Origin: a virus
Lineage: Duplodnaviria; Heunggongvirae; Uroviricota; Caudoviricetes
IMG/VR virus record: IMGVR_UViG_2579778894_000011
Strand: one strand, 5' to 3'
Length of the DNA: 4,270 bases
This document shows, one piece after another, positions 1 through 4,270 of the stretch. The notes under the pieces were generated by a model that had not been told where the DNA came from, ran no database searches, and was given only the letters and a program-made list of their open reading frames with translations. Made by a program: the position numbers and the translations under genes. Within the stretch, counting starts at the first letter, position 1; the number at the start of each line of letters is the position of its first letter.

Positions 1-25
1 GTCAGAACAAGTGCAAATGCTGTAT

Positions 26-214
26 TCATTGCCAGCATCCTTTTTGTATCGGACGTAAACGGGCCAGCATTGAAAGAATGCATATTTTATTTAATAACTC
101 CCGTTCGTGTTTTCTCTTGTTAATGGCATCTTCAGTAAATACAGGGTTACTGATAGTGACACCAATTTCAAAACAACCTTCAGACGTATTAACGTTTGGT
201 AATAACGTTTCCAT
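26..214 (-). CDS. dicB: Cell-division inhibitor DicB (62 aa); the track ORF 26..319 is an over-extension
   Basis: Minus-strand ORF. The internal ATG at 214..212 gives a 62-aa product, METLLPNVNTSEGCFEIGVTISNPVFTEDAINKRKHERELLNKICILSMLARLRPIQKGCWQ, matching my recollection of E. coli DicB in length and sequence. A GAGGA Shine-Dalgarno lies about 7 nt upstream on the minus strand. It sits downstream of DicF as in the known dicB operon. The 35 extra N-terminal residues in the track ORF have no ribosome-binding site. Confidence 0.8.
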   Translation of the reverse strand: METLLPNVNTSEGCFEIGVTISNPVFTEDAINKRKHERELLNKICILSMLARLRPIQKGCWQ

Positions 215-380
215 TATCGCGTCCTCAACAATGAATTTTGTGATGCGATGCCTGGTGCCTCCAGGTGACGTTAACCAGTTAACAATTAACGCCGGATACA
301 GAGAATCCACCCATAACACTGTTTTTGGTTTTAACTGTTCCGCGTGCGCTCAGCCGCATTCACCACATCACAAAATTCAC

Positions 381-402
381 TTTAAAAACGGCGGCAGAGC
401 AG
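381..402 (-). terminator. Possible leaky intrinsic terminator at the DicF 3' end (GC-rich segment followed by a T-run on the minus strand)
   Basis: Minus-strand RNA reads ...CUGCUCUGCCGCCG followed by UUUUUAAA (plus 381..388 = tttaaaaa). GGCGG and CCGCC segments within DicF can pair. dicB lies downstream, so any termination must be partial. Confidence 0.35.
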
Positions 403-441
403 TCACGGAGTAAAACTGATACCGCCAAACGTCACCAGAAA
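389..441 (-). ncRNA. dicF: DicF small regulatory RNA (about 53 nt, antisense regulator of ftsZ and other mRNAs)
   Basis: The reverse complement of 389..441 is tttctggtgacgtttggcggtatcagttttactccgtgactgctctgccgccg, which matches my recollection of E. coli DicF almost base for base. Its position between ydfC and dicB on the dicA strand is the known arrangement. The exact ends are processing-defined and cannot be fixed from sequence alone. Confidence 0.8.
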
Positions 442-466
442 ATTGATAACAGAGGGCGTTGCAGCG

Positions 467-503
467 GGGTTGTCACTTAAGCGTATGGTCAACCTGACAA
501 CCC
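467..503 (-). other. Stem-loop (9-bp perfect stem GGGTTGTCA / TGACAACCC, 19-nt loop) in the untranslated region just upstream of DicF in the operon transcript
   Basis: Perfect inverted repeat read directly: 467..475 gggttgtca and 495..503 tgacaaccc. There is no ORF on the operon strand here. Candidate RNA-processing or stability element. Confidence 0.4.
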
Positions 504-782
504 GGTGTCCTCAACGGGGGAAGGAATAACCCCGCCATACTTACCGCCGCGCCATTTCGCGGATTGCCACAACCGGAAGCGCACGGTCGACGAAAATTTA
601 ACGACAGGCTATCTATGAACCAGCTACCTCGCCGTGCGCTTTCGCGTTATGGTCTGACTTTTCAGGGAAATATCCTTTCAGTAAACTGTCAATGCCGGAT
701 GCTCACCCGTGTCCGGCGCACGCACTCCACCTCACCCGTGGAGAACTCCTTAATTACTAACCTTAGCTTTGTTGATTAGCTA

Positions 783-1001
783 CTAACGCGGGTATGTAAT
801 CATTCTGGCAATGCTTAATGCCGCTGCTTTTTCCAGATTGGTGATATCCTGCTCCAGAGCGGACAGATTTTCAGCCTGCTTAGCTCTGGCTTCATTGGCC
901 CATTTCAGATCCTGCGCTGCATTAATTTTCTGGTGCATCCACTCATAAAGTTCATCATCGGTATAGTCTGGCGCGATGATGACGGGTTCTCGTTTCTGCA
1001 T
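783..1001 (-). CDS. ydfC: Small prophage protein YdfC-like (72 aa), function unknown
   Basis: 72-aa minus-strand ORF with ATG at 1001..999 and a GAGGAA Shine-Dalgarno 5 nt upstream (plus 1007..1012 ttcctc). The position (third gene after dicA) and length match YdfC of the Qin dicB operon; identity is from recollection, not a search. Confidence 0.75.
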   Translation of the reverse strand: MQKREPVIIAPDYTDDELYEWMHQKINAAQDLKWANEARAKQAENLSALEQDITNLEKAAALSIARMITYPR

Positions 1002-1030
1002 ACTGATTCCTCGCGGTGCTGTTTCGCTTA

Positions 1031-1159
1031 TCAGCCGTTAGATTTTGCCGAACTGGAAAGCGCCTGTTTAAATTCGTTGAAGCTGAGAGCTTCTTCGCCT
1101 TCGGCAAGACCTTCGAAGTATTCTTCGTAAGCCTTTTCCATGATTGTGTCGAAATCCAT
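1031..1159 (-). CDS. ydfB: Small acidic prophage protein YdfB-like (42 aa), function unknown; absent from the supplied ORF track
   Basis: Hand translation of the minus strand gives MDFDTIMEKAYEEYFEGLAEGEEALSFNEFKQALSSSAKSNG, with ATG at 1159..1157 and stop TGA at 1033..1031. A GGTGA Shine-Dalgarno lies about 5 nt upstream. The start sits 1 nt after the ydfA stop (TGAtATG). Length and position match YdfB (42 aa). Confidence 0.7.
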   Translation of the reverse strand: MDFDTIMEKAYEEYFEGLAEGEEALSFNEFKQALSSSAKSNG

Positions 1160-1160
1160 A

Positions 1161-1316
1161 TCACTCACCTGAGTTTCTTTCCAGCCAGCGACGGGCACCA
1201 TTTTCGGTTTTAAACGTTTTGCTTTTGGTATACGTCATCGCGGTGAACGTACCGTCCTGGTTGGGAAACACGCCGTACACCAGAGATTCGTTGTTGCCAA
1301 GATCGATAGTATCCAT
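1161..1316 (-). CDS. ydfA: Small prophage protein YdfA-like (51 aa), function unknown; first gene of the dicB operon
   Basis: The internal ATG at 1316..1314 of track ORF 1161..1370 gives the 51-aa product MDTIDLGNNESLVYGVFPNQDGTFTAMTYTKSKTFKTENGARRWLERNSGE, with a GAGGT Shine-Dalgarno 5 nt upstream. The upstream ATG at 1370 has no ribosome-binding site. Length matches YdfA (51 aa). Confidence 0.7.
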   Translation of the reverse strand: MDTIDLGNNESLVYGVFPNQDGTFTAMTYTKSKTFKTENGARRWLERNSGE

Positions 1317-1393
1317 GCTGACCTCATTTCCCCTTAACGCTGGGGTAGCGGAACTGTTTGCTGAGAACACCGTGCGGTGTGTTGATGCAAATA

Positions 1394-1422
1394 AGATTAG
1401 CCATGGCTAACATATAGGTCAA
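1394..1422 (-). promoter_or_regulatory. Candidate sigma70 promoter of the ydfA-ydfB-ydfC-dicF-dicB operon (PdicB-like): -35 TTGACC, 17-bp spacer, -10 TAATCT on the minus strand
   Basis: Minus-strand read: cactTTGACCtatatgttagccatggcTAATCTtatttg. The -35 is plus 1417..1422 (ggtcaa) and the -10 is plus 1394..1399 (agatta). It lies about 75 nt upstream of the ydfA start and overlaps the palindrome at 1397..1410. Confidence 0.45.
1397..1410. promoter_or_regulatory. Candidate DicA operator: palindrome TTAGC-CATG-GCTAA overlapping the spacer and -10 of the candidate dicB-operon promoter
   Basis: Perfect 5-bp inverted half-sites separated by 4 bp. It belongs to the same family as the two palindromes in the dicA-dicC intergenic region (1893..1906 and 1943..1956). 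Confidence 0.5.
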
Positions 1423-1432
1423 GTGATTTTGT

Positions 1433-1448
1433 ATGTTATGGCTAACAT
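1433..1448. promoter_or_regulatory. Second palindrome ATGTTA-TGGC-TAACAT just upstream of the candidate -35; possible auxiliary operator or other protein-binding site
   Basis: Perfect 6-bp inverted arms with a 4-bp spacer, read directly. It shares the TGGCTAA core with the 1397..1410 site but has different half-sites from the TTAGY family. Confidence 0.3.
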
Positions 1449-1460
1449 GATTGATGTGGT

Positions 1461-1491
1461 AAAAGATAACTCATTGATGATGTTATCTTTT
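1461..1491. other. Perfect 10-bp inverted repeat AAAAGATAAC-(11 nt)-GTTATCTTTT overlapping the dicA stop codon
   Basis: Arms at 1461..1470 and 1482..1491. Read on the plus strand it is followed by TTTTATTTG, so it is terminator-like against antisense transcription into dicA. On the minus strand it is not followed by a U-run. Confidence 0.35.
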
Positions 1492-1890
1492 ATTTGTCCG
1501 CTGACGGGCTTTTAGTAATTCTTCAAAGAGTTTATTGAAGTTTTTTACTCGAGCTCGCATTTCGGCGAGCTGGGTATCCTGTTCTGATTCTGGCAGTGCA
1601 TTAAACAGCTCAAGGAGCTCTAGTTCTTTGGGGGATAAGGCAACTGGCTTCTCAACAGGTGGTGTTGGTTGCTTGTCTTCATCGCCAAATAGAATCCATG
1701 TTGGTGAGCATTGCAATACTTTGCTGAGGGCAAAAAGGTTCTTCCCTGTAGGTTCACTATCATCCCGTTCCCATTGTGATACAGACACATGGGAGATTTT
1801 CAGGGCTTTAGCAAGAGACCTTTGGGTGTGTTTGAGGTTTTTCCGACGATACCTAATGCGTTCGCCGATAGTTAAATTTTTTGTTTCCAT
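1483..1890 (-). CDS. dicA: Prophage repressor DicA (CI/C2-like HTH_XRE repressor, 135 aa)
   Basis: 135-aa minus-strand ORF, METKNLTIGERIRYRRKNLKHTQRSLAKALKISHVSVSQWERDDSEPTGKNLF..., with an N-terminal helix-turn-helix (QRSLAKALKISHVSVSQWE). It matches my recollection of E. coli DicA and is divergent from a Cro-like gene. Confidence 0.9.
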   Translation of the reverse strand: METKNLTIGERIRYRRKNLKHTQRSLAKALKISHVSVSQWERDDSEPTGKNLFALSKVLQCSPTWILFGDEDKQPTPPVEKPVALSPKELELLELFNALPESEQDTQLAEMRARVKNFNKLFEELLKARQRTNKR

Positions 1891-1892
1891 AG

Positions 1893-1906
1893 TTAGCTAA
1901 TGCTAA
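1893..1906. promoter_or_regulatory. Candidate operator in the dicA-dicC intergenic region: TTAGC-TAAT-GCTAA
   Basis: Inverted 5-bp half-sites separated by 4 bp, located between the dicA start (1890) and the candidate dicC -35. Confidence 0.5.
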
Positions 1907-1912
1907 ATCGTA

Positions 1913-1941
1913 TTGACTATGTTTTTGTTAACATCTATTTT
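1913..1941 (+). promoter_or_regulatory. Candidate sigma70 promoter for dicC: -35 TTGACT (1913..1918), 17-bp spacer, -10 TATTTT (1936..1941)
   Basis: Good -35 match with canonical spacing, about 30 nt upstream of the dicC ATG. The predicted transcription start falls inside the palindrome at 1943..1956. Confidence 0.4.
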
Positions 1942-1942
1942 G

Positions 1943-1956
1943 TTAGTTATGACTAA
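1943..1956. promoter_or_regulatory. Candidate operator: TTAGT-TATG-ACTAA overlapping the predicted dicC transcription start
   Basis: Inverted 5-bp half-sites separated by 4 bp, same family as 1893..1906 and 1397..1410. Confidence 0.5.
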
Positions 1957-1973
1957 CAATAAAGGTGTTTTAA

Positions 1974-2204
1974 ATGCTTAAAACTGACGCTCTTTTGTAT
2001 TTCGGTTCAAAAACAAAACTTGCACAAGCAGCAGGTATTCGTTTGGCTTCGCTTTATAGCTGGAAAGGGGATTTAGTTCCCGAAGGTCGCGCGATGCGTC
2101 TACAGGAGGCATCTGGCGGGGAGCTTCAGTATGATCCCAAAGTTTATGATGAATATCGTAAGACGAAGCGGGCGGGGCGGTTGAACAATGAAAATCACTC
2201 CTGA
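1974..2204 (+). CDS. dicC: Cro-like regulator DicC (76 aa)
   Basis: 76-aa ORF, MLKTDALLYFGSKTKLAQAAGIRLASLYSWKGDL..., with an AAGGTG Shine-Dalgarno 6 nt upstream. It is divergent from dicA and matches my recollection of E. coli DicC. Confidence 0.88.
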   Translation: MLKTDALLYFGSKTKLAQAAGIRLASLYSWKGDLVPEGRAMRLQEASGGELQYDPKVYDEYRKTKRAGRLNNENHS

Positions 2205-2709
2205 ACAGGCTCGTGAGGCTCTGGATGCCTGGATATGTCGACCAGGAATGACACAGGAGCAGGCGACGATATTAATCACTGAAGCATTCTGGGCTTTGAA
2301 AGAGCGCCCGAACATCGATGTTCAGCGTGTCACAGATGAAGGTGGCGCGGTTGATCAGCGAGCGCTTGGCGTTAATCGAGTGAAGATATTCGAACGCTGG
2401 AAGGCTATCGACACCAGGGATAAGCGTGAAAAGTTCACGGCGCTAGTGCCTGCGATTATGGAGGCTATCCGGATTAGTGATTTCAGGTTGTATCGTGAGA
2501 TCAGTGATGGAAAAAGTATTACGTACATGATCGCCGGGTTAAATAAAGAATATGGCGATGTGGTGGAATCCGGACTGCTTTTTGCAGATCCTGCCGTTGT
2601 AGATCGTGAAACTGACGAACTTATAGAAAAAGCAATTGCTTTCAAGCTTGCGTATCGACAGCAATACCAACAAAAAGCTGGATGGAATTATGAGTCTTCT
2701 TTTTGCTGA
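2188..2709 (+). CDS. YdaT-family prophage protein (173 aa), likely a CII-like regulator; often labelled toxin YdaT in databases
   Basis: 173-aa ORF directly after the Cro-like gene, overlapping its 3' end by 17 nt. This position is held by YdaT-family proteins in Rac/Qin-type prophages. The family assignment is from gene order and general resemblance, not a search. Confidence 0.6.
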   Translation: MKITPEQAREALDAWICRPGMTQEQATILITEAFWALKERPNIDVQRVTDEGGAVDQRALGVNRVKIFERWKAIDTRDKREKFTALVPAIMEAIRISDFRLYREISDGKSITYMIAGLNKEYGDVVESGLLFADPAVVDRETDELIEKAIAFKLAYRQQYQQKAGWNYESSFC

Positions 2710-3655
2710 ACGCCCACTGGTTATAAACACGCAGCTGGCAATGAAAATTGGCTTAAACGAAGCCATTGTTTTGCAACAACTGCACTACTGGTTGAGAGAT
2801 ACCAACTCCGGCATGGAATGTGATGGTGTTCGCTGGATTTATAACACAACGGAACAATGGCTGGAACAGTTCCCATTCTGGTCAGAGTCAACGTTAAAGC
2901 GCGCGTTTGCAAGTCTGAAAACGCTGGGGCTTTTGCGTTGTGAAAAGCTCAATAAATCAAAGCGCGATATGACCAATTTCTACACGATCAACTACGGGAG
3001 CGAGCTTTTAGATGGTGGCAAATTGAGCGAATCCATCGGTTTAAAATGCGCCGCTCCATCAGGTCAAAATGACACGATGGAAGAGGTCAAAATGAAACGC
3101 TCCATTGGTTCAAAACGACTCAATGTCATCGGGTCAAAATGGCCTGATGATCTTACAGAGAATACAACAGAGATTACTACAGAGAATAAAAAGACTTCTC
3201 GTCCGGAAGCTTCGCAACCGGACCCGCAGACGGTTGAACAGGATTTTTTAACCCGACACCCTGACGCGGTTGTGTTCAGTGCGAAAAAACGCCAGTGGGG
3301 CAGCCAGGAAGATTTGGCGTGTGCGCAGTGGATCTGGGGGCGAATCGTGAGTCTTTACGAGCAGGCCGCCAGCGATGATGGCGAGATTTCGCGACCGAAA
3401 GAACCCAACTGGACCGCATGGGCCAACGACGTGCGCACAATGCGGATGCTGGATGGCAGAACTCACAGACAAATTTGTGAAATGTTTGGTCGGGTGCAGC
3501 GGGATCCATTCTGGGTAAAAAATATCATGAGTCCGTCAAAGCTTCGCGAAAAATGGGATGAACTGGTTATCCGCCTGGGGCGTTCGTTTGTACAGCGTTG
3601 TGTGAATCATATTTCTGAGCCGGATACCGAAATTCCGCCGGGCTTCAGGGGGTAA
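2690..3655 (+). CDS. Phage replication initiator (replisome-organizer, O-like) protein; start uncertain (2690 or 2744)
   Basis: Long ORF (track 2636..3655). An N-terminal winged-helix-like segment (MSLLFAERPLVINTQLAMKIGLNEAIVLQQLHYW...) resembles phage replisome-organizer N-terminal domains. Iteron-like repeats and an AT-rich block sit inside the coding sequence, as with lambda O and ori. The ATG at 2690 overlaps the upstream stop by 20 nt. Confidence 0.7.
   Translation: MSLLFAERPLVINTQLAMKIGLNEAIVLQQLHYWLRDTNSGMECDGVRWIYNTTEQWLEQFPFWSESTLKRAFASLKTLGLLRCEKLNKSKRDMTNFYTINYGSELLDGGKLSESIGLKCAAPSGQNDTMEEVKMKRSIGSKRLNVIGSKWPDDLTENTTEITTENKKTSRPEASQPDPQTVEQDFLTRHPDAVVFSAKKRQWGSQEDLACAQWIWGRIVSLYEQAASDDGEISRPKEPNWTAWANDVRTMRMLDGRTHRQICEMFGRVQRDPFWVKNIMSPSKLREKWDELVIRLGRSFVQRCVNHISEPDTEIPPGFRG
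3062..3142. repeat. Four iteron-like direct repeats (GGTCAAAATGA core) spaced about 23 bp apart inside the replication gene; candidate origin iterons
   Basis: Copies at 3062..3072 (ggtcaaaatga), 3085..3095 (ggtcaaaatga), 3107..3118 (ggttcaaaacga) and 3132..3142 (ggtcaaaatgg). The last is embedded in a local dyad, TCATCgggtcaaaatggccTGATGA. Confidence 0.55.
3155..3188. repeat. AT-rich block with three 12-bp-periodic repeats ACAGAGA(A/T)TA immediately after the iterons; candidate DNA-unwinding region of the origin
   Basis: acagagaata at 3155..3164, acagagatta at 3167..3176, acagagaata at 3179..3188. It encodes a low-complexity linker (TENTTEITTEN) in the replication protein, analogous to the lambda ori layout. 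Confidence 0.5.
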
Positions 3656-3695
3656 GTGTTAATTTCTGGTCATGAGGTAATTTTCAGGAGGGCTT

Positions 3696-4118
3696 GTGGC
3701 AAAAGTTTTTACACAAGAAGAGCGGGAAAAAATTAAAGGGCAGGTTGTTGAACTCGTACGCCGGAGTGGGCGTGAGACGTTACGGCAACTGGAAGTCAAG
3801 ACAGGTGCGACAAGATATCTGATGAGCGTTCTCGCAAGAGAGCTGGTTGCCAGCGGCGATGTATACAACTCTGGTTACGGGTTATTCCCGTCTGAACAGG
3901 CGCGTAAGGACTGGCAAAATGCCCGTAAAAAGCTCTCAAGGGCAAAGCTGAAGGAACCATCTGCGGTTGATCCGGACCTTATCTGGTCATTACCTGACGG
4001 AGAAATACGTCGCTACGACAGGCGTCAGAACATAATCTGTCGCGAGTGCCGGAAGAGTGAAGTTATGCAGCGCATACTAGCATTCTATCAGGGAAATGCT
4101 CGATATTTATTGAAGTGA
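3696..4118 (+). CDS. Hypothetical prophage protein (140 aa), unknown function, GTG start
   Basis: ORF with a strong AGGAGG Shine-Dalgarno (3686..3691) 4 nt upstream of GTG at 3696. It has no Walker A motif, so it is not a DnaC/P-type helicase loader. A basic stretch and a single CxxC (ICRECRK) are present. Confidence 0.6.
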   Translation: MAKVFTQEEREKIKGQVVELVRRSGRETLRQLEVKTGATRYLMSVLARELVASGDVYNSGYGLFPSEQARKDWQNARKKLSRAKLKEPSAVDPDLIWSLPDGEIRRYDRRQNIICRECRKSEVMQRILAFYQGNARYLLK

Positions 4119-4180
4119 TGAGATTAAAGTTTATTAGTTCAGATATTGATTGGCTCTTTTGTGGAGTAGGGTAGAGTTAG

Positions 4181-4270
4181 GGAAGGTGCGAACAAGTCCC
4201 TGATATGAGATCATGTTTGTCATCTGGAGCCATGGAACAGGGTTCATCATGAGTCATCAACTTACCTTCG
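4181..4270 (+). mobile_element. IS5 left end (terminal inverted repeat GGAAGGTGCGAACAAG at 4181..4196), continuing beyond the window
   Basis: The sequence from 4181, ggaaggtgcgaacaagtccctgatatgagatcatgtttgtcatctggagccatggaacagggttcatcATGagtcatcaacttaccttcg, matches my recollection of the IS5 terminus and the start of its transposase. It is immediately preceded by TTAG (4177..4180), which fits the IS5 target preference (YTAR). Confidence 0.85.
4249..4270 (+). CDS. insH: IS5 transposase InsH, first 7 codons only (MSHQLTF...); truncated by the window edge
   Basis: ATG at 4249 followed by codons for SHQLTF, matching the N-terminus of the IS5 transposase as I recall it (MSHQLTFADSEF...). Confidence 0.8.

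Follow-up and report, generated by a model that had tools for sequence, protein, structure and literature searches.

The window analysed here, a 4,270-nt stretch of Caudoviricetes DNA, carries part of a Qin-like lambdoid prophage of Escherichia coli and ends within a copy of the insertion sequence IS5. The last genes of the replication block, the beginning of a non-coding spacer and the left end of the element follow each other directly. Their positions in the window, and the basis on which each was assigned, are as follows:

2690..3655, plus strand: O-like replication initiator, 321 aa from the annotated ATG (PHROG 391)
3696..4118, plus strand: DUF977/Ren-like gene, 140 aa, last of the replication block (Pfam PF06163, PHROG 142, annotation of relatives)
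4119..4180, no strand: first 62 nt of a 252-bp non-coding spacer (empty-site comparison and alignment of four relatives)
4134..4250, minus strand: 38-aa chimeric open reading frame made by the insertion, not a gene (start codon inside IS5)
4177..4180, no strand: TTAG, IS5 target (YTAR) and presumed left copy of a 4-bp duplication (direct reading; single copy in the empty site of IS-free relatives)
4181..4196, plus strand: left terminal inverted repeat of IS5, GGAAGGTGCGAACAAG (direct reading; same 16-mer as in the K-12 copy)
4181..4270, plus strand: left end of IS5, element bases 1-90 (90/90 identity; aligns to base 1 of the K-12 copy, locus L005 1401-2595; cut by the end of the window)
4249..4270, plus strand: start of the IS5 transposase gene (ins5A/insH), MSHQLTF... 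(translation; 7 codons in the window)

Left end of the element

The terminal 90 nt of the window (4181-4270) correspond to bases 1-90 of IS5 and were identical to annotated IS5 copies at every position (90/90, E = 7e-39). The 16-bp left inverted repeat of IS5 was found at 4181-4196, and the transposase start, located about 69 nt from the left end in IS5, was found at 4249, where the ATG occupies element base 69, the same offset as in the annotated transposase CDS of the K-12 IS5 copy. That copy has a length of 1,195 bp, with the left 16-mer at base 1 and the right repeat CTTATTCGCACCTTCC, and is flanked by a CTAG/CTAG duplication. The combination of the 90/90 match, the repeat and the transposase offset therefore identifies the left, transposase-proximal end of IS5 and not a chance match; the agreement is far beyond chance. 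The same IS5-end match (90/90) was present in 1,527 of 5,426 complete E. coli genomes, that of K-12 MG1655 among them, with up to 28 matching places per genome. A preliminary description of this DNA had placed an IS5 terminus at 4181 right after TTAG and the start of insH at 4249; direct reading and the 90/90 match agree with the former, and the ATG opening MSHQLTF at element base 69 agrees with the latter.

The empty site and its prophage

Positions 1-4180 of the window differed from the IS-free Qin-like prophages of strains 98-3133 and Z1323PEC0012 at two bases (389 and 3588). When positions 3600-4270 were used as query, these relatives gave a 100% alignment to window positions 3600-4180, and the match ended exactly at 4180. 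The empty site of the relatives reads GAGTTAG up to the point of insertion and TGTGTTTG beyond it, with one TTAG. Their genes are ordered int (frameshifted), DUF4224, exonuclease, ydfD, dicB, ydfC, ydfB, ydfA and dicA on one strand, and dicC, a YdaT-family/cII-like gene, the gene of the 321-aa protein, DUF977, a gap of 252 bp and the gene of a SMEK-domain protein on the other; beyond the latter are two minus-strand genes (methyltransferase and hypothetical), and then hokD. By the annotation of these relatives, which differ at two bases, the Qin-like block (dicB, DicF, ydfC/B/A, dicA, dicC) is present. The DicF small RNA gene lies at window positions 389-440 on the minus strand (Rfam RF00039, 72.5 bits), and the base difference at position 389 falls on the 3'-terminal position of this match.

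The gene order of the relatives bears out that the element was inserted directly downstream of the replication module at TTAG, as had been proposed. Among the 145 genomes with this arrangement, the spacer was uninterrupted in the best 60, so the empty state is ancestral; judged from this comparison, the IS5 insertion is a derived state confined to one strain. The idea that the spacer is a recurrent IS hotspot was considered and rejected because nothing was inserted there in the same best 60 of 145 genomes. By megablast, the IS5 junction was absent from the phage and plasmid collections and from 5,426 complete E. coli genomes, and exact-pattern scans of representative-genome and metagenome collections found neither the left junction (as a 40-mer and a 28-mer) nor the predicted right junction (as a 32-mer).

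The closest relatives have a frameshifted integrase and IS hits of their own (loci L002 962-2012; L003 1-3098; L004 5026-6280 and 13222-14430), namely IS903B within dicB, IS421 within the exonuclease gene and ISVsa5 close to hokD, besides an IS3-family element in one of the strains. This is a lineage of decaying prophages in which IS elements accumulate.

Target site and spacer

The target motif of IS5 is YTAR (PMC5009759; PMC5493358), a strong motif in the 220 IS5 duplications reconstructed from E. coli mutation-accumulation lines, where IS5 insertions also favour non-coding DNA (P = 1.1e-37; PMC5009759). TTAG accounts for 3 of the 24 IS5 targets in the ISfinder list (PMC5493358). The tetranucleotide at 4177-4180 (TTAG) conforms to this motif; at the density of YTAR sites in the window (13.4 per kb), it is by itself unremarkable. 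The spacer of the relatives, 252 bp long, has a G + C content of 34.5% (window, 46.4%) and contains ten YTAR sites (about 40 per kb, roughly three times the density of the window). In the IS-free relatives the target is located 62 nt past the stop codon of DUF977 and 190 nt before the ATG of the SMEK-domain gene, and no annotated feature is present in their spacer. An IS5 insertion in such an AT-rich, YTAR-dense spacer is an expected outcome.

Downstream of the DUF977 stop codon, about 85-90 nt of non-coding sequence are shared by prophages that have otherwise diverged, and this conserved block ends at a mosaic breakpoint; it comprises window positions 4119-4180 and about 25-30 nt more in locus L001 (to about 6610). 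Homology across the diverged prophages is lost about 25-30 nt past the IS5 target, and the target tetranucleotide itself differs among relatives (TTAG, CTAG or GTAG). The conserved block gave no Rfam match beyond noise, and its fold was no better than that of shuffled sequences (z = +1.5); a simple consensus scan of the spacer in the FORC 064 locus yielded no terminator and no sigma-70-like promoter. By eye, a 6-bp hairpin could be drawn immediately beyond the target; it was dropped because two of the four relatives disrupt it and it lacks a T-run. Possibilities for the role of the block are a recombination boundary or a Rho-dependent signal.

Replication module

The 140-aa protein encoded at 3696-4118 is a full-length DUF977 protein (PF06163, E = 2e-30, residues 1-135) and also matches PHROG 142, 'Ren-like exclusion protein' (E = 3.4e-46, residues 1-137); by these profile matches it belongs to the DUF977/Ren-like family, with a predicted function. 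Its gene occupies the position of ren in phage lambda and is therefore the natural last gene of the replication module. As previously described, this reading frame is followed by IS5 within 62 bp, its end lying 62 nt before the element. The 321-aa protein matches PHROG 391, 'replication initiation O-like' (E = 1.8e-94), and has partial DnaD-like matches; it had no match in Pfam. The mechanically called open reading frame on the plus strand (2636-3655) begins at a TTG and encodes 339 aa, and the RefSeq annotation of the relatives uses the ATG at 2690 (321 aa); read from this ATG, the frame shares 20 nt with the cII-like gene upstream of it.

There is no loader gene of the P or DnaC/YdaV type next to the initiator: none was found between or after the O-like and DUF977 genes in the window, in the IS-free relatives or in phage HannyBb. 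The deposited phages mEp460_ev081, PhiR42_1 and HannyBb have the same module of cII-like, O-like and DUF977 genes (93-94% identity), and in the annotation of HannyBb, the one of the three that was read, the genes after DUF977 are small and nin-like, and a loader gene is lacking (locus L009 4503-5931). In the diverged prophage of PEC422, the order is O, ydaV, DUF1627 and DUF977, with the DnaC-like gene upstream of DUF977. On this comparative basis, the absence of a loader is native to the module and not damage caused by IS5. Since the IS-free relatives and the phages are likewise loader-less, IS5 displaced nothing from the module, and the cII-like, O-like and DUF977 genes make up an intact, complete replication block. 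How such a loader-less module recruits the host helicase is not evident from the annotation.

Interpretation of the insertion

We consider it probable, with good confidence, that this is a simple insertion of IS5 at TTAG in a non-coding spacer, by which no gene was broken and the replication block was left complete. In this reading, a Qin-like (dicB-dicF-dicA-dicC) lambdoid prophage of E. coli received a standard IS5 copy at the TTAG (YTAR) of the AT-rich non-coding spacer that follows its DUF977/Ren-like gene. The element is oriented with the early-right operon, its transposase gene reading toward the downstream cargo. The earlier statement that insH reads away from the prophage genes applies only within the window; in the relatives the prophage continues downstream of the site. 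A simple insertion mediated by a DDE transposase with a 4-bp duplication predicts that TTAG and TGTGTTTGTCTGCTTGG or, given to another extent, TTAG and TGTGTTTGTCTGCTTGGTGCC come after the right end of IS5, CTTATTCGCACCTTCC. The window reaches only to element base 90, and it is from the relatives and from published event frequencies that we infer a full-length element, a second TTAG and a prophage that continues as in the relatives.

The weightiest alternative, which we nevertheless regard as unlikely, is that IS5 marks the boundary of a rearrangement, the DNA to its right having been deleted or inverted after the insertion or by recombination between two IS5 copies; the cargo genes, hokD, Q and the lysis genes would then no longer be adjacent, and no matching TTAG would be found on the far side. 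Such events do occur: in mutation-accumulation lines of E. coli, IS-IS recombination accounted for 98 of 857 IS events (PMC5009759), IS5-end matches are numerous in individual genomes (up to 28), and prophages of the Qin type are often truncated, as in strain E308, where a chromosomal BCCT transporter gene directly follows DUF977. The window itself has no sign of a rearrangement, however, and its left flank is a perfect YTAR target corresponding to a single intact site in the relatives, as for a primary transposition; among the 857 events, moreover, plain insertions (758) outnumbered recombinations by about 8 to 1 (PMC5009759).

Far less probable still, and in our judgement close to negligible, is that the element interrupted a minus-strand gene or displaced a gene for a helicase loader or another replication protein, as the preliminary description had suggested. 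An open minus-strand frame does extend across 4134-4180, and some lambdoid modules have a DnaC-like gene, as exemplified by PEC422 (O, ydaV, DUF1627, DUF977). That DnaC-like gene is, however, located upstream of DUF977 and not after it, and the IS-free relatives, two bases apart, have the same gene order with no P- or DnaC-like gene nearby, as is also the case for the three loader-less phages, so that the proposed displacement does not hold. As to the minus strand, the frame noted over 4137-4180 exists, but it is not the remainder of a gene. Its start codon lies within IS5, and the 38-aa open reading frame is therefore a chimera created by the insertion. The counterpart at the empty site encodes 32 aa and is unannotated in all relatives examined; in three diverged relatives its start codon is not conserved, and a 1-nt indel in two of them shifts the C-terminus. 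An interrupted minus-strand gene is therefore rejected. Alignment to IS-free Qin-like prophages, which had been proposed as a way of naming the interrupted gene, instead revealed a non-coding site at which no coding sequence is broken.

Downstream cargo and possible effects

The contents of the slot after DUF977, immediately to the right of the point that corresponds to window position 4180, vary among Qin-like prophages (loci L001 6520-9347; L007 2601-4405; L006 2601-3556; L008 2591-4928) and include a SMEK-domain protein together with a methyltransferase and a hypothetical protein in 145-146 genomes, a Sll1717-family P-loop ATPase, a minus-strand hypothetical gene, and the end of the prophage followed by the chromosome. 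The N-terminus of the SMEK-domain protein matches the PADLOC model PDLC02399 (Aga_REase-PNTD1-PNTD2) with E = 1.5e-20. The slot may be a hotspot for defence genes.

Because the site is non-coding, the effect of the insertion is likely neutral. IS5 elements located upstream of fucAO and glpFK change the expression of the neighbouring operon (PMC11894529; PMC5493358); activation of fucAO involves an IS5 whose transposase gene is oriented toward the gene, and a fusion promoter (PMC11894529). By analogy, the present element might switch on the SMEK-domain candidate defence gene or uncouple it from early-right transcription, and might perhaps have been selected for this, which we consider very improbable. 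The SMEK-domain gene would then be activated either by transcripts that read through from an ins5A fusion promoter or by the element's 3' bent-DNA/IHF region.

In sum, this is an ordinary, strain-specific IS5 insertion in a cryptic, decaying Qin-like prophage and is known in kind; the functional consequences suggested for it are not supported. Lying at a textbook target in non-coding DNA, the insertion has little wider import, but its junction is usable as a strain marker. The 38-aa junction reading frame is an annotation artefact and may serve as a warning to annotators.

Comparison with known systems

The insertions of IS5 at fucAO and glpFK resemble the present one in their intergenic YTAR target; as in fucAO, the transposase gene reads toward the downstream gene, and the 3' bent-DNA/IHF region of IS5 would face the SMEK-domain gene (PMC11894529; PMC5493358). 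At fucAO, in contrast, the mechanism depends on a Crp site immediately preceding the element; the insertion in the window resembles that case in position and orientation.

The IS5 copy of K-12 (NZ_CP032667.1, 1816019-1817213) shares with the window the first 90 bases, the left repeat, the transposase offset and a YTAR tetranucleotide that immediately precedes the element; it differs in its target, which is CTAG instead of TTAG, and the window contains the left 90 nt only. As in the O-P-ren region of phage lambda, the replication module runs from an initiator to a small Ren-family gene at its end, beyond which lies a variable nin-like region. Unlike the region in lambda, however, the module in the window has no P/DnaC-type loader, and its initiator, O-like and 321 aa long, shows partial similarity of the DnaD-like type.

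The prophage as a whole is comparable to Qin of E. coli K-12 and to other Qin-like prophages, with which it shares dicB, the DicF RNA, ydfC, ydfB, ydfA, dicA and dicC, followed by the early-right operon. To the right of dicC, K-12 Qin presumably retains only remnants (ydfX, ydfW), whereas the prophage in the window has intact cII-like, O-like and DUF977 genes.
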